Source: an uncultured archaeon (GTDB lineage Archaea; Asgardarchaeota; Heimdallarchaeia; Heimdallarchaeales; Heimdallarchaeaceae). Taken from it: a DNA stretch of 64,000 bases. The position numbers and the translations under genes were made by a program. Under the pieces are notes generated by a model. That model was given only the letters and a program-made list of their open reading frames with translations. It had not been told where the DNA came from and did not search any database. The DNA lies in NCBI GenBank assembly GCA_964534625.1, contig CAZHRF010000008.1:1-64000 (forward strand), written 5' to 3'. Shown piece after piece: positions 26,633-37,535 of the stretch (position 1 is its first letter; every line of letters starts with the position of its first letter).

Positions 26633-26746
26633 TTGAACTTCCGAAATAGTGTGATAATACATCAAAATCAAGAAATAAATCGATTTATTTTCGGTGTAAA
26701 CATATTGAAGAGTATATAATATTATTGCTTAATTCGGAAAGTACTA
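26633..26746 (+). mobile_element. MITE copy 4
   Basis: ttgaacttccgaaatagtgtg...cttaattcggaaagtacta; TSD 4/5 (ttatt/ttatg). Confidence 0.72.
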
Positions 26747-26820
26747 TTATGAGTTCTCTCTGTATGAGTTGTGATAGATTTCAAGAAAAGTATTTAAAGC
26801 ATCAAAAATATACCGTTTTT

Positions 26821-28374
26821 ATGAATATCTCTGACATTGGCTCTTTAATTCAAAGACTGGTTCAAAAAACCAACAAATCAGAAGATCAAATCAAGGTAAT
26901 GATTGCAAATAAAGTAAAAGAATATGAAGGTTTATTGACAGAATCAGGTGCAGCCTTTCTTATTCTCAAAGAAATTGATGATACGTTTACGCAAACTACT
27001 ACATACAAACCCGAATTTTTAGCTATCAATAAAATCACTAAGTCCCACGGTATTTGTTCTGTTAAAGGTATAATCGTTTCTAGCTCAAATGTTCGTTCTT
27101 TTCTTAGAAAAGATGGATCAGTAGGCGAGTATACTTCTTTTCTTTTATCGGATAATACAGATTTAATTCGTGTTGTTCTGTGGGATGAGAAAACCTCTTT
27201 TGTTGAATCTCTTGATTTAAAAAGAGGAAAAACCGTTGAAATTATTAATGTTTACCCTAAAACTGACCGTAATCAAAAATTGGAATTACATTCAGGGAGA
27301 AATACAATAATCGAACCTCTTTCTACTGATGAAGAGTATATTTTACCTGAAGCTGAGCATATAGATATAACAAACATTGATGAATCTACTAGCAATTTCA
27401 AAATTATTGCTAAAATAGAATCAATATCTCCAGAGAGAGTATTCGAACGTTCAGATGGTACAGAAGGTAAAGTTATCAATTACGTGCTTAGAGATAAAAC
27501 TGGTACTATCAGTTTAGCATTTTGGAATAAAAGAACGGAAAAGGCTAAAGAAATTATGGGTGCTACTACTCATCTATCAGAAGCGATCATTGAAGTAGTT
27601 AATCCTTATGTCCGCAAGAATAGTTTTGAAGAACTTGAATTAGGTGTTGGGCGAGAAACAGAGATCACTATTTTAGAGAACTACGACTTAGGCTTACCCG
27701 ATGAATATCCAACAAAAGATTTACCCTTAATCAAAATAGGAGAAATTGATAAAGAGAGTGGTTTTGTTAGAACTATGGGTATAGTAGGTAAAGTGCGGGA
27801 GATAAATGAATTTACCCGATCAAATGGAGATTTGGGGGCAGTATGTTCTTTTTATTTAATTGATGAAACGGGTGAGATTAGAGTTGTTCTTTGGAACGAG
27901 AAAACAGAATTGATTAATGAATTGTTAGAGTATGCACCCGTTCAGTTGAACAATTTTATTGCCAAACTAGACAGAGAAAATGAAATAGAATTACATTCCA
28001 TAAACTCTTCTTCTATCACCAAAGAAGGACTTGAAGAAATATTCACCCCTGAAAACTTTCTAAAAAACATCTTCGAGATCAAAGATAGAATGTATAATTT
28101 AACTATCCGAGTAAAAATTAATTCAATAGGCGAAGAGAGAACCTATATAAGAGATGATGGTTCTTCAGCTACCGTATTGAATGTTGATGTGGAAGATTTG
28201 ACAGGAAAAGCGCGATTATCTGTCTGGGATAATGAAATAGCAAAAATAGAATCAATTCCAGAAGAAACATGGGTTGAAATAACAGGTGTAAGATCAAAGG
28301 TATCTGAAATGGGTTTAGACTTAATCTTAAGCAAAGCATCTAAAGTTGAAGTATTAAAACAAGCAAGAAATTAG
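26821..28374 (+). CDS. rpa: Replication protein A (about 4 OB folds)
   Basis: Repeated F.R.DG..G..D.TG.I....W motifs; N-terminal GLLTESGA helical domain; the track's TTG start lies inside MITE copy 4. Confidence 0.88.
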   Translation: MNISDIGSLIQRLVQKTNKSEDQIKVMIANKVKEYEGLLTESGAAFLILKEIDDTFTQTTTYKPEFLAINKITKSHGICSVKGIIVSSSNVRSFLRKDGSVGEYTSFLLSDNTDLIRVVLWDEKTSFVESLDLKRGKTVEIINVYPKTDRNQKLELHSGRNTIIEPLSTDEEYILPEAEHIDITNIDESTSNFKIIAKIESISPERVFERSDGTEGKVINYVLRDKTGTISLAFWNKRTEKAKEIMGATTHLSEAIIEVVNPYVRKNSFEELELGVGRETEITILENYDLGLPDEYPTKDLPLIKIGEIDKESGFVRTMGIVGKVREINEFTRSNGDLGAVCSFYLIDETGEIRVVLWNEKTELINELLEYAPVQLNNFIAKLDRENEIELHSINSSSITKEGLEEIFTPENFLKNIFEIKDRMYNLTIRVKINSIGEERTYIRDDGSSATVLNVDVEDLTGKARLSVWDNEIAKIESIPEETWVEITGVRSKVSEMGLDLILSKASKVEVLKQARN

Positions 28375-30260: not shown

Positions 30261-30809
30261 ATTTCAGAAGATTTCGAAGAGGAACTGTTAGAATTAGCAA
30301 AGATTCAAAATGACAATGACCAACAAAAAAAGAGAGAAAAAGATCTGCTAGAAAAAAAAAATCGGATGCAAAAAAAACTCTCTCAAAAGCCTACTGCGTT
30401 ACGATTGCCTGTTTTTCAATTTGCGATTATTGAACTATCAGGCATTATTTTATACAATCGCCGATTTGAAAAAGAGCTCATGGATGAATTTCTCTTCTCT
30501 GGTTTTAGCGCGGCAATCATAGCCTTTTCTAAAGAATTAGGAACAACTTTGTATATGATATCTATGAAGGATGTGAATTTCTTCTTCAAAGAATTAGGGG
30601 ACTTTTTTATTGTAATAGCTTCAGATCCAGCAATAAATAACGAGGATGTCAAAACATTAATTGAAACTATTACTAATCAATTAATATCCATTGAACTGAA
30701 CAAGCTTCCTAATATTAACGATTATTTTCTCACGGATGAGTTTGATGATTTTATTCTGCAAGCTATGATCCATTTCCAGATAGAGCAAAAAGGAAATGTT
30801 ATTAAGTAA
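30261..30809 (+). CDS. Longin-like domain protein with charged N-terminal helix (probable ATT start)
   Basis: SGIILY..DEFLFSGFSAAIIAFSKEL; frame open upstream of ATG 30366; SD AGGAGGT 7 nt before ATT 30261. Confidence 0.75.
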   Translation: MSEDFEEELLELAKIQNDNDQQKKREKDLLEKKNRMQKKLSQKPTALRLPVFQFAIIELSGIILYNRRFEKELMDEFLFSGFSAAIIAFSKELGTTLYMISMKDVNFFFKELGDFFIVIASDPAINNEDVKTLIETITNQLISIELNKLPNINDYFLTDEFDDFILQAMIHFQIEQKGNVIK

Positions 30810-30956: not shown

Positions 30957-32732
30957 CTATTCTTCAACCACGCCATATATTCTAAGTACATTAGCCCCTA
31001 TTTTCTTTTGTTTCTTGATTCTAAATTTTCCAATCTCTCCCGTATGGTCTACATGCGGTCCTGCACAAAATTCTTTAGAAAAGTTTCCAACTGAATAGAT
31101 GCTTACTTTATCGCCATATGTTTCATCAAATAATCCTATAGCATTGGATTTTTTCGCTTCTTCAAGTGGCATTATCTCTTTTTCAACTGGCAAATCCGCT
31201 TCAACTTGTTCATTAACTATCTCTTCTACTTGTTTAACTTCTTCTTTAGTCATTTTTCTTTTGAAAGTAACATCAAAGCGTGTTCTTTCTTTGGTGATGT
31301 TAGAACCAGTTTGATGAACAGTATCACCCAAGACATTTCTCAATGCTTGATGGAGCAAATGTGTCGCTGTATGATAACGTTTAACTGTTTTTGAGTGATC
31401 ACTTAATCCAGATTGAAACCTTCCCTTAGCTGCTGTTCTTGATAATTCCTTATGTTCTTCAAAAGAAGCATAAAATTCTTCTTTATTTATAGGTAAATTA
31501 CGTTCTGCCAATAATTCAAAAATGATTTCTTTAGGCATTCCATAGGTTGAAAAGAGCATGAAAGCGTCTTCACCTGATAATCCATTATTATTGTCTACCA
31601 TTCTATTGAATTTCCTCATCCCTCTTTTAATGGTATTACGGAACTTCTTGGCTTCTTTTTCAGTTTGTTGGTATACAAAATCTCTTCTCTCTATTAATTC
31701 CGGATAATGATCGCCAAATTCTTCTATTATTGGATTAATTAATTCTAATATAATATCAAGTTCTAGGTCTAATTGATCTAGTTTAACCATTGCGCGTCTT
31801 AATAACCGTCTAATGACATATCCTTGCTCTTCTTTACCAGGAGGTATGCCTTTAGGATCACCCATAGCGAAAACAGCACTACGAGTATGATCTACAATTA
31901 TTCTAATTCTTTTAATATCCTTATCAGTAAGATCATCTTCCTTTCCAACTAATTCTTTAACTTTTTCAAATAAAGGTTGGAAAACATGTGTATCGTAAAT
32001 TGTTTCTTTTCTATTCAAAATTTGTAGCATTCTCTCCACTCCCATTCCTGTATCGATATTTTGTTGTTCTAATATGTTATATGTTCCATCAGGTTGTTTA
32101 TCATAAAACATAAACACATCATTCCAGACTTCAACATACTTGCCACAACTGCATCCGGGTTTACAGTTTTCACTACATTTATCGAATCCATTATCAAAGA
32201 ACATCTCAGTATCTGGGCCACATGGACCCACATGTCCTACTGGTCCCCACCAATTATCTTCTCGACCTAAAAAGAAAATATGATCTTCAGGAACACCTAA
32301 ATCCATCCATATGTTTTTAGACTCTTCATCTCGCGGAATTTCTTCATCTCCTTCATAGAGAGTAATGTAAATCTGATTTGGATCCATATTCAGCCATTCT
32401 TTACCCGTTAAAAACTCAAATGACCATGATATGGCTTCTTTTTTACCATAATCTCCAAGAGACCAATTTCCTAACATCTCAAAAAATGTTAAATGTGTAG
32501 TATCGCCTACTTCGTCAATATCACCAGTCCGTATACATCTCTGAACATTATATAATCGCGTCCCTAATGGATGCCTTTCACCTAATAAATAAGGAACAAT
32601 AGGATGCATGCCTGCACTTGTGAAAAGTGCACTAGGGTCGTTCTCAGGGTAAAGAGAAAAGTTTTGGATTTTTTTGTGATCTTTGCCTTCAAAGAATTTG
32701 AAATAAAGCTCAATTAGAGTCTTTCTATCCAT
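30957..32732 (-). CDS. alaS: Alanyl-tRNA synthetase, short form lacking C-Ala
   Basis: LFTSAGMHP, HLTFFEMLGNWS, GPCGP, IDTGMGVER; editing motifs HTATH and CAGPH. Confidence 0.96.
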   Translation of the reverse strand: MDRKTLIELYFKFFEGKDHKKIQNFSLYPENDPSALFTSAGMHPIVPYLLGERHPLGTRLYNVQRCIRTGDIDEVGDTTHLTFFEMLGNWSLGDYGKKEAISWSFEFLTGKEWLNMDPNQIYITLYEGDEEIPRDEESKNIWMDLGVPEDHIFFLGREDNWWGPVGHVGPCGPDTEMFFDNGFDKCSENCKPGCSCGKYVEVWNDVFMFYDKQPDGTYNILEQQNIDTGMGVERMLQILNRKETIYDTHVFQPLFEKVKELVGKEDDLTDKDIKRIRIIVDHTRSAVFAMGDPKGIPPGKEEQGYVIRRLLRRAMVKLDQLDLELDIILELINPIIEEFGDHYPELIERRDFVYQQTEKEAKKFRNTIKRGMRKFNRMVDNNNGLSGEDAFMLFSTYGMPKEIIFELLAERNLPINKEEFYASFEEHKELSRTAAKGRFQSGLSDHSKTVKRYHTATHLLHQALRNVLGDTVHQTGSNITKERTRFDVTFKRKMTKEEVKQVEEIVNEQVEADLPVEKEIMPLEEAKKSNAIGLFDETYGDKVSIYSVGNFSKEFCAGPHVDHTGEIGKFRIKKQKKIGANVLRIYGVVEE

Positions 32733-32961
32733 AATTAGTAATACCTCATCTTGAAATGATGAAAAGTCTATAAAAAAATTATTGTTTTACGAGAGTCTCT
32801 CCAAATTTTGTAGGTGAGATTTATTTCTCTCATTATCATATCAATTATTCTTAGATAGTGCATTTTTTGAATTTTTGAGTTGTTTTTTTCTCGTATTCCT
32901 AGTAAATACATTTTTAACTATGTTTACCTCAATTGTGATTGATTAATATACGTGAGTTATA

Positions 32962-34896
32962 ATGAAGTCAATAGAAGAGATCTGTGAAAAATTTGCAGTA
33001 CAAAATGCTCTAGAGCATGGTGAAGCTAAAATCGGTCCTGTTATGGGGAAAGTGATGTCAGCTCATCCTGAACTAAGAAAAAAGGCTAACGAAGTCAAAG
33101 ATATAGCATTAAAACAAATTGACCTAATTAACACATTAACCGTATCAGAAATTCAACAAATAGCTCAAGACCGATATCCAGACTTGCTTAAAGAGGATAA
33201 GAGTAATGAGCAAGAAGGTACAGACTTCATTCGCGCCATAGTCGAAAAACATATGGAAACAGGCCGTTTTAACGGAAAAGTACGTACTCGTTTTCCTCCC
33301 GAACCTAATGGCTTTCTTCATATAGGGCATGCCTTTTCTATCTTATACAACTATAATCTCGCTAAAGAGTATAATGGAACATTTAATTTCCGTTTTGACG
33401 ATACTAATCCCATCAAAGAAGAAGATGTCTATGTTAAGGGAATGATTGAAGATATCAAATGGCTGGATGTCTATGAGAAGCGGGGAGATGATGATAATGT
33501 TTTGTTTGGCTCCGATTATTTCCAACAGTTTTATGATTATGCTTTACAATTAGTAGAAAAAGGTTTAGCCTACGTTGATGATTTGAGTGCTGATGAAATT
33601 AGTGAACTACGTGGAACATTAACTGAACCTGGTGAAAAGAGTCCTTATCGAGATCGACCTGTTGAAGAGAATTTAGATTTATTTAAACGCATGAAAGTAG
33701 GGGAATTTCCCGATGGTGCAAAAGTTTTACGAGCTAAAATCGATATGGCTCACCCTAACATGAATATGCGTGACCCAGTTATGTATAGAATCCTCCATAA
33801 ATCTCATCATAACACGGGAGATAAATGGTGTGTCTATCCCATGTATGACTGGGCTCATGGGTTAGAAGATTCAATTGAAGGTATTACTCATTCTATCTGT
33901 ACTCTGGAATTTGAAAACCATAGACCTCTTTATGATTGGTTTTTAGATCAGCTTGAAGATGAAGAAAATAACCCGATTCATCACCCCCAGCAAATAGAAT
34001 TCGCGAGAGTCAATGTTTCGCATACTGTGTTAAGTAAACGTAGGGCTCTCATTTTAGTCAATGAGGGATATGTAAATGGATGGGATGATCCACGGCTTCT
34101 TACTATAACGGGGTTAAGAAAAGCTGGTGTGCCTGTGGCAGCTATTCGTTCTTTTTGTGAGAGTATAGGAATCTCTAAACGAGATAGAATTATTGATAGG
34201 TCAATTTTAGACCATCACATACGGGAAGAATTAAACAAAATTTGTCCTCGTACTATGGCTGTTATAGACCCATTAAAAGTTGTAATAACTAATTATCCAG
34301 AAGGGAAAGAAGAGAAATTTGAAGTTTCTAACCATCCTTTTGATACATCATATGGAACTCGTAAGATAACATTTTCTCGTGAAATTTATATCGATCGAGA
34401 CGATTTCATGGAAAATCCACCTGATGATTTCTATAGACTATCTAAGGATAGAGAAGTACGCCTTAAATATGCTTATCTAATTACTTGTGATGAAATAATT
34501 AGGGATGAAAAAACAGACCAAATAGTCCAATTAAATTGCTCATACGATCCTAAGACTTATGGTGGGAAAGTACCAGATGGAAGAAATGTAAGAGGAACTA
34601 TTCATTGGATTTCAGTTGCTCATGCAGAAAAAACTACCATACATCTTTATGATAGATTATGTACACGAGCTAATCCAATGGATACTGAAGAAGGAAAAGA
34701 ATTTACAGAATATGTTAATCCTGATTCATTTAAGATTAAAGAAGCATATGTTGAGCCATATTTAATCAAAGAAGAGTTAGGTACAAGAGTGCAGTTTGAA
34801 CGTAATGGCTATTTCTATTTGAGTCCATATGAATCTACTCAAGATAATAAAGTGTTCATACAAATCATCTCTCTAAAAGATTCTTGGTCCAAGTAG
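32962..34896 (+). CDS. glnS: Glutaminyl-tRNA synthetase (bacterial type) with archaeal GluRS-like N-terminal domain
   Basis: TRFPPEPNGFLHIGH, RFDDTNP, YPMYDWAH, THSICTLEF, QIEFAR, VLSKR, GTIHW, QFERNGYF. Confidence 0.92.
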   Translation: MKSIEEICEKFAVQNALEHGEAKIGPVMGKVMSAHPELRKKANEVKDIALKQIDLINTLTVSEIQQIAQDRYPDLLKEDKSNEQEGTDFIRAIVEKHMETGRFNGKVRTRFPPEPNGFLHIGHAFSILYNYNLAKEYNGTFNFRFDDTNPIKEEDVYVKGMIEDIKWLDVYEKRGDDDNVLFGSDYFQQFYDYALQLVEKGLAYVDDLSADEISELRGTLTEPGEKSPYRDRPVEENLDLFKRMKVGEFPDGAKVLRAKIDMAHPNMNMRDPVMYRILHKSHHNTGDKWCVYPMYDWAHGLEDSIEGITHSICTLEFENHRPLYDWFLDQLEDEENNPIHHPQQIEFARVNVSHTVLSKRRALILVNEGYVNGWDDPRLLTITGLRKAGVPVAAIRSFCESIGISKRDRIIDRSILDHHIREELNKICPRTMAVIDPLKVVITNYPEGKEEKFEVSNHPFDTSYGTRKITFSREIYIDRDDFMENPPDDFYRLSKDREVRLKYAYLITCDEIIRDEKTDQIVQLNCSYDPKTYGGKVPDGRNVRGTIHWISVAHAEKTTIHLYDRLCTRANPMDTEEGKEFTEYVNPDSFKIKEAYVEPYLIKEELGTRVQFERNGYFYLSPYESTQDNKVFIQIISLKDSWSK

Positions 34897-35254
34897 AATT
34901 AGAAAAACAGAAAGACTTAGTATCATTTTCTTTTAGAAATAAAGATAGAGGACATAGACGGAGATTTAATGACCTCTTCTCTTTATCCTTTTGTGATGAA
35001 TTACGTTCGTAGAAACGTATCCGTATAACATTTTCTCAATTACTTTTAAACTCACTTAACAAATATAGGATAGTTTTTAAACTAAAAAAAGGGAGAAGAA
35101 GAGACTCAAGATTACACCGTTTTTACACTAGGGAGAACAAGGATAATTAGATAAAAACACAACAAACAAACTAGTTAATAGTCTTAGATGGTCTCTATCA
35201 ATAGTTTAAGATAAATAAAGTTTTACTGGCACCTGGATGAAAAAAAGATCCGCT

Positions 35255-35683
35255 TCAAAGTTTCTTCATACTTATTTGCAATGATTTATTAATTGAATAT
35301 CTAGGATAACCATATTTGTCATATTTGTCTTTATATTTATTTATTGCAACAACAGATAGCTTTACTTTAAACTGATGTACACCACCTCTAAAAGTAAAAT
35401 GATACTTATTCCAAACTTCCTTTAATTGGTCATAATCAATAAATTCTGGTTTAATCTTACTAATATCGTCGTCTCTTTCTTTCGCTGATACTCTATCGGT
35501 CGCATACCAAACTTGGAATGAAGGTTTCCCATGTGGAATTAATCCTTCTTTTCCCTCATCATCTTTAAAATGAACCAATCGTTCCAAAATAAACTTTGCT
35601 GCAAGTATTGTATCATCCTTCACTTCATACTTATTCCATTCTTCTTTTTGTGTTTCAAATTCTATTACTTCATATTCCATCAT
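35255..35683 (-). CDS. Hypothetical protein with duplicated E-x-W-N-K-Y module
   Basis: EFETQKEEWNKYEVKD and DYDQLKEVWNKYHF..YDKYGYPRY; SD GAGGTGA; 6 bp after the hicA stop. Confidence 0.75.
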   Translation of the reverse strand: MMEYEVIEFETQKEEWNKYEVKDDTILAAKFILERLVHFKDDEGKEGLIPHGKPSFQVWYATDRVSAKERDDDISKIKPEFIDYDQLKEVWNKYHFTFRGGVHQFKVKLSVVAINKYKDKYDKYGYPRYSINKSLQISMKKL

Positions 35684-35689
35684 ATCACC

Positions 35690-35914
35690 TCATAATGCCT
35701 CTATAAATTCCTTTTGAGAAATATTTGCTTGTTTTAGAATTGAATCAAGAGTGCCTTTTTTTATCTCTGGATGATTGGGGATTACAACCCTTTTGCCAGT
35801 TGTATCATGTCTTAATACAATATGCTTTTTATGTCGTAATACTTGATATCCAAATTTATTAAGCACTTTTACAACATCCATCGCAGAACACACTGGTAAT
35901 TTAAAAATTAACAC
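35690..35914 (-). CDS. hicA: HicA-family toxin (mRNA interferase)
   Basis: KLPVCS..VVKVL.KFGY..KHIVL..VVIPNH.EIKKGTL.SILKQA. Confidence 0.9.
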   Translation of the reverse strand: MLIFKLPVCSAMDVVKVLNKFGYQVLRHKKHIVLRHDTTGKRVVIPNHPEIKKGTLDSILKQANISQKEFIEAL

Positions 35915-35920
35915 CTCATT

Positions 35921-36190
35921 TTATCTTCTGATAACTTCTAATTCAAACATTGACTTACCAAAATTATAAGGAAATTCTTTTCCCTCTTGTAAAAAAGAGC
36001 GATGTAATTCCCTGTATGCATCACTAAATTGATCTAATGCTTCATCTTCATCTTCACATTCAGTAATTATTTCGGGTATTGAAGGAACTGTGATTGTGAA
36101 ACCTCCTTCTTCTTGTTCTTTTGCAATTACTTTGATTATGGTAAATTCATCTTCTTGGCCTGATGTATTATTATCTAATTGAAGTGTCAT
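35921..36190 (-). CDS. hicB: HicB-family antitoxin (short, no DNA-binding domain)
   Basis: EEGGFTITVPSIPEIITECEDEDEALDQF.DA. Confidence 0.88.
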   Translation of the reverse strand: MTLQLDNNTSGQEDEFTIIKVIAKEQEEGGFTITVPSIPEIITECEDEDEALDQFSDAYRELHRSFLQEGKEFPYNFGKSMFELEVIRR

Positions 36191-36365: not shown

Positions 36366-37535
36366 TCAACTAGACCCTTTGCTTACTCCAAAATTTGATT
36401 CTACTAATGCATTTACATTTTCAACCTCATTTTTTCTTAGATTAATATCCGTACTCATACTAGCTATCACTTCACCTACGTCTTCTTTGAATCCCTCTAG
36501 TGCTTCAATAAAATACTTTGAAGATAGATCTGTGACTAAAACAATCGATAATTTATCACCCAACGGCTTAATTAAAAGTTTAAGATCTTCAAATGCTATT
36601 TCTTTAATCTCTTTTTCTTCTCCAACAAATTCATGGATGAGATTTGATATGGCTTTTAAGGCACCAGAAAAAAGTATCTGCTTATTTTCACATTCTGTTT
36701 TCGAGAGAGAATTATCCTCTTCAAATGTATTAAAAGAATAACTATAAACAGGAATGCCAGACTCATTGATAATAATCAGATTTCTAAGGCTTTCAGATTG
36801 CAAAAGAAATATTCCACCTTTATTATAAAAGTAGAAAAATAGCCCTAAACTTATAGTGATGATGAATCCTGCTAGATCAATATTTGGATTTTGGAATAAA
36901 ACCCCAATAAAAACGGGCGCCAAGATCATAATCCCTAGAGTAACGGTCATTTTTTTTAACAAATTTTTGACATCTGTGTTTCTCGTGTTTCTTATCTTAC
37001 TCACTAGGCGTTTTATAATACAAACTGCAATTATGAAAAATAACACATAGAGTAATATGCTGAAAATGACATATAAAACACTTACTGATAATTCTAAATA
37101 AGTAGGAACACTATCCTCAAACAAGTGTTCAATGGAAGTTAAATTATATTGACCAATCAATATCCTCATTAACATCGATAGCATAAAATAAAGAGGGGTT
37201 GCGCTCACCATTAACCCACCTAATATTAGATTCTTTTTTGTTAATACATTCTCAGATTCAAATGATTCAATAAATAACAAAATCAAATAAAGACTGATTA
37301 ATTGAACAATGGTAATAAGACTCCAAGCCATAATGCCGATCTCAGTATCAAAAGGGAATATAATAGTGTAAATGTGTGAAAAAATCATCAATCCTACTGC
37401 AATAAAAATAAACACCAACGTTTTGTATCTATACTGAATATAATTACGAATAATCCAAACAAATAACATGAAAAGTATAATAAGCTGAGCTATGAAAAAA
37501 ATGGTATTTAATAGTTGCATAGGAACCAATAACAT
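36366..37535 (-). CDS. Polytopic (~7 TM) membrane protein with C-terminal longin-like domain
   Basis: Hydrophobic N-terminal ~240 aa; ESGIPVYSY..ILFSGALKAISNLIHEF..IKEI. Confidence 0.78.
   Translation of the reverse strand: MLLVPMQLLNTIFFIAQLIILFMLFVWIIRNYIQYRYKTLVFIFIAVGLMIFSHIYTIIFPFDTEIGIMAWSLITIVQLISLYLILLFIESFESENVLTKKNLILGGLMVSATPLYFMLSMLMRILIGQYNLTSIEHLFEDSVPTYLELSVSVLYVIFSILLYVLFFIIAVCIIKRLVSKIRNTRNTDVKNLLKKMTVTLGIMILAPVFIGVLFQNPNIDLAGFIITISLGLFFYFYNKGGIFLLQSESLRNLIIINESGIPVYSYSFNTFEEDNSLSKTECENKQILFSGALKAISNLIHEFVGEEKEIKEIAFEDLKLLIKPLGDKLSIVLVTDLSSKYFIEALEGFKEDVGEVIASMSTDINLRKNEVENVNALVESNFGVSKGSS

Follow-up and report, generated by a model that had tools for sequence, protein, structure and literature searches.

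Reviews published from 2017 to 2022 hold that archaea lack glutaminyl-tRNA synthetase (GlnRS), and account for this by an archaeal tRNA-Gln orthogonal to the bacterial and eukaryotic enzymes (PMC9499178, PMC8762117, PMC7373986, PMC5388404); more hedged statements are also found, such as 'almost all archaea' (PMC8762117), or the loose remark, in 2022, that GlnRS passed to archaea (PMC8879553). Among the closest described enzymes, GlnRS is set apart from ND-GluRS, the glutamyl-tRNA synthetase of archaea that is non-discriminating, by three insertions, and its acceptor-stem unpairing loop has been described; the N-terminal region of ND-GluRS is referred to as a disordered YqeY domain (PMC2978374). 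In Deinococcus GlnRS, a YqeY domain acts as an affinity enhancer in cis (PMC1865053). Here we describe a gene, glnS, located within a 64,000-nt stretch of contig CAZHRF010000008.1 (the window), whose product joins an N-terminal domain of the archaeal GluRS type to a GlnRS core of the bacterial type. The literature searched, which does not cover some pertinent papers, contained no account of GlnRS clades in archaea or of such a fusion; a preprint (bioRxiv 2024.07.04.601786) annotates in passing a putative 'GlnRS' next to coxABC, and databases already annotate the fused proteins as glutamine-tRNA ligase.

Identification of a fused glutaminyl-tRNA synthetase

Coordinates refer to the window, and residue numbers to the 644-aa fused protein, unless E. 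coli numbering is stated. Families are labelled f1 (Heimdallarchaeaceae), f6 (Gerdarchaeota) and f5 (probably Hodarchaeales); G000 is the source genome of the window, metagenome-assembled, 90% complete and with 2.6% contamination. The open reading frame (ORF) is free of stops, and all the motifs quoted in an earlier, sequence-only reading of this DNA are present in its translation. A switch to TDFIRAIV, the bacterial-type start, had been placed near nt 33220; it begins exactly there, at residue 87. The features of the gene are the following:

32962..34896, + strand: glnS, fused glutaminyl-tRNA synthetase, 644 aa (ORF, profile matches, AlphaFold model)
32962..33192, + strand: helical domain at the N-terminus, aa 1-77, a homolog of the N-domain of archaeal GluRS (PRK04156 E 1.8e-16; 3AII E 2.8e-8)
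33193..33219, + strand: flexible acidic linker, the junction, aa 78-86 (predicted local distance difference test score, pLDDT, <50 at 78-86)
33220..34893, + strand: bacterial-type GlnRS core, aa 87-644, with Rossmann fold, CP domain and two anticodon-binding beta-barrels (PF00749, PF03950, PF20974)
33319..33330, + strand: HIGH motif, aa 120-123 (aligned to E. coli 40-43)
33610..33633, + strand: acceptor-stem unpairing loop, aa 217-224 (by alignment; E. coli 133-140, Leu220 being Leu136)
33835..33912, + strand: Gln pocket, Tyr295 (Y211), His299 (H215), Ser311 (S227), Cys313 (C229), Phe317 (F233) (by alignment, E. coli numbers in brackets)
34027..34041, + strand: KMSKS-equivalent, aa 356-360 (by alignment; Lys359 being E. 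coli Lys270)
34405..34452, + strand: G36-reading anticodon loop, aa 482-497 (by alignment; Arg492 being E. coli Arg402)

The AlphaFold model of the protein has a mean pLDDT of 91, and its closest folds are the bacterial GlnRSs 5BNZ and 4JXZ. The N-domain is predicted to contain helices at residues 4-19, 24-34, 36-57 and 61-71 (helical region 4-76). The distance between the YP motif and the start of the core is 16-19 aa in 46 homologs.

By every sequence criterion tested, the protein is a GlnRS. Compared with TIGR00440, it scores 628 bits, above the cut-off of 425.8, with a match covering residues 107-644, and it falls below the cut-offs of both archaeal GluRS models (357 vs 402 bits for TIGR00463, 349 vs 516 for PRK04156). 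Residues R30, D66, Y211, H215, S227, C229, F233, Q255, K270, R341, R402, Q517 and R520 (E. coli numbers) are invariant in all the 67 fused rows of the alignment, which include redundant sequences. Position 229 is Cys in the fused proteins (Cys313) and Arg in 11/11 GluRSs, in which the position of Arg402 corresponds to a gap. The loops found only in GlnRS (134-139, 392-407 and 473-494) are all three present in the fused protein, and none of them is found in the GluRS of the same genome; the unpairing loop is also absent from archaeal GluRS and from most of the eukaryotic GlnRSs sampled. The pocket residues, the loops and the TIGR00440 score support, at the level of sequence, the glutamine specificity proposed by the sequence-only reading, and glutaminylation by the fused enzyme is very probable. 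A direct route of glutaminylation in an archaeon, also put forward there, is probable: the fused protein, made of a bacterial-type core and a domain of the archaeal GluRS type, is probably a true GlnRS, with tRNA-Gln of archaeal type as the direct acceptor of glutamine.

Distribution of the fusion

About 50 full-length fused homologs, with identities of 57-66%, were found under the names Heimdallarchaeaceae, Heimdallarchaeota or Asgard. Carriers include Candidatus Heimdallarchaeum aukensis, Candidatus Heimdallarchaeum endolithica and one Gerdarchaeota protein, and fused glnS is present in both one-contig (closed) Heimdallarchaeum genomes. The fusion occurs in 19 of 24 other Heimdallarchaeaceae genomes, and in none of 16 genomes from three sister families. 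The GlnRS cut-off is passed in 40 of 301 Asgard genomes, belonging to just 3 of the 30 families sampled: f1 (21 genomes) and f6 (7) with the fused form, f5 (12) with an unfused one. The archaeal host is supported, with homologs across Heimdallarchaeaceae and Gerdarchaeota, and a GlnRS conserved in three families of Heimdallarchaeia contradicts, in its absolute form, the statement that archaea lack this enzyme. One 559-aa protein, P0112 (Heimdallarchaeota), branches within the fused clade, its shortness being probably due to a late start call. Two candidates from other sources proved to be unfused: the ORF of Chloroflexota bin L054, matched from residue 8, is an ordinary 560-aa GlnRS, and the GlnRS of phage locus L213 has no fusion.

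A chimeric assembly or contaminating bacterial DNA could be suspected from the metagenomic origin of the genome, from its 2.6% contamination and from the location of glnS, away from the usual locus of the family. The existence of some 50 divergent fused homologs, two closed genomes among the carriers, argues against it. Positions 32500-35300 are found in one piece, with zero differences, in four Logan assemblies, all from a single study which may be the source of the window. Furthermore, GC content at third codon positions is alike in the two parts of the gene (0.26 and 0.24) and in the neighbouring genes (0.22-0.27). Misassembly and contamination, to which we assign a negligible probability, are rejected, and the junction stands.

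Unfused bacterial-type GlnRS is also found in Thermoplasmata and in f5. The proposal of a new system is not maintained: the fusion is a variant of known parts. In many Thermoplasmata (loci L043, L055, L057, L060, L061, L066, L084 and others) the unfused enzyme is flanked by tRNA-Gln genes. Compact bacterial-type GlnRSs of 510-550 aa are encoded by large viral contigs (L200-L245, several >300 kb), and other viral contigs (L246-L255) carry a GlnRS of the giant-virus, eukaryote-related type.

Origin of the two parts

Identity of the core is 48-61% with bacterial GlnRS, 37-44% with eukaryotic GlnRS and 26-34% with archaeal GluRS. A core tree was built including plant, protist and giant-virus GlnRSs, with archaeal GluRS as outgroup. 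According to the Shimodaira-Hasegawa-like approximate likelihood ratio test (SH-aLRT), the fused proteins make up a single clade (100) within a prokaryotic-type clade (99), separate from the eukaryotes (97). In seven alignment columns the fused sequences side with the bacterial ones, and eukaryotes with GluRS; zero columns support other groupings. The bacterial-type core described by the sequence-only reading is supported by this nesting, by the TIGR00440 score and by the identity values; the trees support bacterial-type branching (SH-aLRT 99) and do not fix the exact place of the fused clade among bacterial GlnRSs. Import of the core from bacteria appears highly likely. Sequences from f1 and f6 are intermixed in both trees, which suggests one fusion, with later transfer or loss. 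Joining the fused and the f5 enzymes in one clade is compatible with the approximately unbiased (AU) test (0.55), which does not separate one entry from two.

Taken alone, residues 1-90 match two models of archaeal GluRS, PRK04156 (E 1.8e-16) and TIGR00463 (E 6.7e-9), and the N-terminus aligns to residues 3-82 of the M. thermautotrophicus ND-GluRS 3AII (E 2.8e-8; profile 6.8e-15). When an N-domain profile was run against 1.84 billion representatives, every full-length match (>490 aa) was closer to the GluRS core, and those with a name are archaeal GluRSs; outside the fused family, the full-length relatives of the domain are all GluRSs. The domain is of the archaeal GluRS type, as had been proposed. 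The host's own GluRS, from which it was said to have been borrowed, is not supported as the specific donor: the profile of the fused N-domains gives its best scores with a subgroup of f5 GluRSs (75-81 bits, vs 41-63 for own-family and 43-61 for f6 GluRSs), and an 82-column N-domain tree names no donor (AU: own-family 0.12, f6 0.19, f5 subgroup 0.49).

No Pfam family matches the N-domain, including YqeY/GatB tail and the eukaryotic N-terminal domain (NTD) families PF04558 and PF04557. With hhalign, a weak alignment to the GatE tail (probability 23%, 33 columns) pairs the conserved stretch G-x-A-x-x-G-P-V-M-G with the canonical GatE tail motif, which would fit the YqeY label. No similarity to the eukaryotic NTD was detected (hhalign probability 0.2%), so that the convergence on eukaryotic architecture, earlier suggested, holds only loosely. 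Fold searches with the N-domain gave no match above background, YqeY 8XJG ranking 29 (VIA Z 4.9, root mean square deviation 2.0 over 46 residues), and an Atlas feature search gave only leads <0.9.

tRNA-Gln genes

Contig C27 of the source genome carries its two genes for tRNA-Gln; each has A1-U72, G2-C71, A73 and A37, and either C3-G70 or U3-A70. Compared with the E. coli identity set (G73, U1-A72, G2-C71, G3-C70, anticodon, A37, U38), G2-C71, the anticodon and A37 match, as does U38 in the CUG species, whereas A1-U72, A73 and C3-G70/U3-A70 differ. This departure of the tRNA is what characterizes the variant, and has no bearing on membership in the GlnRS family. Throughout the fused lineages, A73 is found in 40 of 46 tRNA-Gln and G3-C70 in none. 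Asp235, which in E. coli GlnRS contacts G3-C70, is replaced by Val, Asn or Ile throughout the fused rows; the local tRNAs have no G3-C70 and, for the most part, no G73.

The f5 genomes with unfused GlnRS have an extra tRNA-Gln set, mostly adjoining glnS, with G73 and A37 in 21/21 genes, next to a mostly intron-bearing native set with A73 and G37 in 16/16, although these gene counts are not independent and the contrast with the fused lineages rests on two clades. This pattern suggests two solutions to the tRNA barrier proposed in the reviews. The f5 pairs lie at loci L147-L158, L167, L170, L173 and L373-L391, and the f5 GlnRS with its G73/A37 tRNA could be a natural orthogonal pair.

Two other groups of tRNA genes were observed. 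In four f3 genomes (G034, G035, G037, G040; L357-L360; 68-86% complete), in which no GlnRS was found, tRNA-Gln(UUG) carries G3-C70, G73 and U38, as the E. coli identity elements. The glnS clusters of relatives contain extra tRNA-Gln-like genes with odd anticodon loops (L022:2229-2302; L037:6538-6612; L007:1132-1206; L009; L011; L036:10105-10179), of which one was called as UUA (ochre) and is mismatched at A1-A72, and others have an irregular loop, UUUAGG or UUUUGG; they may be pseudogenes or suppressor-like tRNAs, and are absent from the source genome.

The indirect route

Genes of the indirect route, about which the sequence-only reading had asked, are all present in the source genome: an intact GluRS (contig C17) and a gatE-gatD pair above cut-off (G000:C33:32917-36145; loci L001, L314), in addition to AsnRS and AspRS. 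GatB was not found in this 90% complete genome. The GatE is divergent, scoring about 390 bits vs mostly 560-640 in sister families. It belongs to a separate clade (100/100), represented also at L302, L304, L305 and L306, whose members occur beside a canonical GatE in Gerdarchaeota, f2 and one genome of f5. In f1, the two closed genomes included, the divergent paralog is the only GatE found. Its C-terminal tail motif, a feature of GatE linked to tRNA-Gln recognition (PMC2811023), is degenerate. The view that the classical GluRS and GatDE pathway is simply kept in the source genome has to be corrected, since this GatE is not of the canonical kind. Divergent gatE-gatD was also matched in Asgard family f27 and in one Thermoplasmata bin.

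Four f5 genomes with GlnRS (G131, G142, G193, G201) show the same GatE state as f1, and their native tRNA-Gln set was not found by pattern search; gatE was not found in 7 of the 10 GlnRS-bearing Thermoplasmata genomes checked. Families f2, f3, f4 and f7, in which no GlnRS was found, have canonical GatE wherever the full gene was recovered. That no canonical GatE was found in f1, together with the parallels in f5 and Thermoplasmata, speaks for GlnRS as the principal source of Gln-tRNA in Heimdallarchaeaceae, which we consider reasonably likely.

Proposed mechanism and alternative explanations

In the model that we propose, Heimdallarchaeia would have acquired a bacterial glnS, which in a single event was joined to the part of an archaeal GluRS gene that encodes the N-terminal domain, giving rise to the form now common to Heimdallarchaeaceae and Gerdarchaeota. 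The core would read U35 and G36, open the weak A1-U72 pair with the CP loop and activate glutamine, and the tethered helical domain would most likely bind the tRNA elbow, restoring affinity in cis as YqeY does in Deinococcus GlnRS. For the N-domain itself, a role as tRNA-affinity enhancer, by analogy with the Deinococcus domain, is slightly favoured. A wider scheme can be put forward only tentatively, and has less than an even chance: Heimdallarchaeia would have crossed the tRNA-Gln barrier twice, in opposite ways, f5 by a dedicated G73/A37 tRNA set serving an unmodified bacterial enzyme, f1 and f6 by an enzyme refitted with an archaeal GluRS domain for ordinary A73 tRNA; f1 would have dropped canonical GatDE, its Gln-tRNA being formed by the direct route, as in the cytosol of eukaryotes, and the second GatDE paralog would have another substrate.

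In the opposite direction of descent, an archaeal GluRS would have been duplicated in Heimdallarchaeia and one copy would have become GlnRS, with the N-domain retained; bacteria, perhaps eukaryotes, would be the recipients. The domain order is indeed that of archaeal GluRS, and the N-domain groups with no single GluRS lineage, as expected of an old duplication. Rooted constrained trees (LG+F+G4, 44 rows), compared by AU tests, do not reject the fused clade as sister to all bacterial GlnRS (0.40), nor fused and f5 enzymes together as deepest (0.116) or as sister to eukaryotes (0.106). The same tests do reject the fused clade by itself as sister to eukaryotes (0.0016) or as deepest (0.0014), the best trees put it among bacteria, and the identity of the core is far from even between bacterial and eukaryotic GlnRS. 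As no column groups fused proteins with GluRS against the rest, and GlnRS is confined to so few Asgard families, retention is regarded as very improbable, and import from bacteria is preferred.

Two other explanations accept an active GlnRS and differ on what it does. The N-domain might be a neutral leftover, the bacterial core having replaced the body of a duplicated gluRS, or might serve protein contacts or stability. This would fit the location of some unfused Thermoplasmata GlnRSs beside A73/G37 tRNA-Gln, the lack of net positive charge, the disorder of the region in 3AII and the absence of an outstanding fold match, and it is unlikely in view of a mean column identity of 62% across two orders, about that of the whole protein, with N15, G20 and A22 invariant; the f5 tRNA contrast and the Deinococcus precedent also fit a role on tRNA. 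Still less likely, the enzyme could be auxiliary, charging one isoacceptor or acting under one condition, and ND-GluRS with GatDE would make most Gln-tRNA. GluRS and the gatE-gatD pair are intact, Gerdarchaeota have canonical GatDE beside the fusion, and some f1 genomes show no glnS; against this stand the degenerate tail of the only GatE of f1, the canonical GatE of families without detected GlnRS, and the single tRNA-Gln set of the closed f1 genomes. For the divergent GatDE, a function as Asn-tRNA amidotransferase was considered: neither GatB nor AsnB was found in the source genome. On the other side, the same genome has AsnRS, and its AspRS carries Gln at a position where non-discriminating enzymes carry His. 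Asparagine synthetase as such was not found there (AsnB; no AsnA-type third match), with AsnRS present and completeness at 90%.

Several observations weigh against the proposed model or parts of it. Besides the AU value of 0.40 reported above, an unrooted test of fused and eukaryotic sequences together gives p 0.28. The N-domain has no excess of basic residues (11 K/R, 12 D/E). Several f1 genomes, 72-92% complete, yielded no GlnRS. The divergent GatE retains catalytic motifs and its gatD partner, so that, with GluRS intact, the indirect route may persist. On the tRNA side, where the contrast has the narrow base already mentioned, Asn at 235, as in the source protein, is common in bacteria (11/34), and G73 is also seen in f1, in six genes for tRNA-Gln(CUG), as well as in the four f3 genomes without detected GlnRS. 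Several unfused Thermoplasmata GlnRSs lie beside A73 tRNAs, for which the N-domain would thus not be strictly needed.

Fused and unfused GlnRSs, with their differing tRNAs, are ready pairs for testing the idea of tRNA-Gln orthogonality, and could also show the function of the archaeal GluRS N-domain, not resolved in the only crystal structure. The fused enzyme is a further instance of a translation component replaced by a bacterial one in the group closest to eukaryotes; most likely, eukaryotic GlnRS does not owe its origin to it.

Genomic context

In many relatives, glnS is directly followed by tRNA-Gln genes, and in H. aukensis it lies between genes for an M24-like peptidase and a kinase-like protein. 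In the source genome, the tRNA-Gln pair on C27 lies between these two flanking genes with no glnS beside it, indicating that the gene moved or was replaced there. Its present neighbour is the following:

30957..32732, - strand: short PRK01584-type alaS, divergently oriented from glnS and not part of the enzyme (pairing in the source genome only)

The short AlaRS (591 aa) is the only AlaRS found in the source genome; a search of 40 further genomes from the order gave no AlaRS of this type, which is frequent in f5 and in another two Asgard families. Its named matches are mostly from Thorarchaeota and Hodarchaeales, and it appears as a lineage-specific replacement adjoining the relocated glnS. 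Downstream of glnS (35255-36190, - strand), two small ORFs, one weakly HicB-like (E 0.05), have no counterpart in the glnS loci of relatives and may mark a mobile patch. The window also encodes an RPA-like multi-OB-fold protein (26725-28374, + strand), with two further paralogs in the genome (C44, C1), and two proteins of typical Asgard signature type: a small longin-like one (30366-30809, + strand; weak PF19036) and one in the membrane (36366-37535, - strand), with a C-terminal part that is longin-like by eye.

Comparison with known systems

With bacterial GlnRS (E. coli GlnS 1GTR/4JXX; P. aeruginosa 5BNZ; TIGR00440), the fused enzyme shares the fold (template modelling score 0.94-0.96 by target, 48-50% identity), the Gln pocket, the unpairing loop, the G36 loop and the proximal barrel loop; it differs by the extra archaeal N-domain, the archaeal host, the replacement of Asp235 and a host tRNA with A1-U72 and A73 and without G3-C70. 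Archaeal ND-GluRS (M. thermautotrophicus 3AII; TIGR00463, PRK04156) has the N-terminal domain, called YqeY-like (PMC2978374), in the same position, whereas the fused core is below both cut-offs for that family, has Cys for the pocket Arg and contains three insertions that ND-GluRS lacks.

Unfused GlnRSs of Thermoplasmata and f5 are likewise of bacterial type, in archaeal hosts and usually beside tRNA-Gln genes. They differ in having no N-domain, f5 adding its G73/A37 tRNA-Gln set and most of the Thermoplasmata genomes checked (7/10) having no gatE found. Eukaryotic GlnRS (yeast Gln4 4H3S, human QARS 4YE6; PF04558/PF04557) also carries an N-terminal helical appendage on a GlnRS core, but its NTD is about 187 aa long, with two GatB-like subdomains (PMC3333875) and no detected likeness to the fused N-domain, and the cores branch apart.

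The Deinococcus radiodurans GlnRS-YqeY (2HZ7; PRK14703) has, like the fused enzyme, a bacterial-type core and an appended helical domain, and the working model of an affinity enhancer in cis is likely shared by the two. The appendage is C-terminal, 215 aa long and GatB-derived in Deinococcus, N-terminal, 77 aa long and GluRS-derived in the fused enzyme. The PRK14703 match of the fused protein covers model positions 8-558 of 769, and the protein ends with the core, with no C-terminal YqeY extension; the NCBI label 'YqeY domain fusion', also given to unfused proteins, is not a description of the N-terminal fusion reported here.

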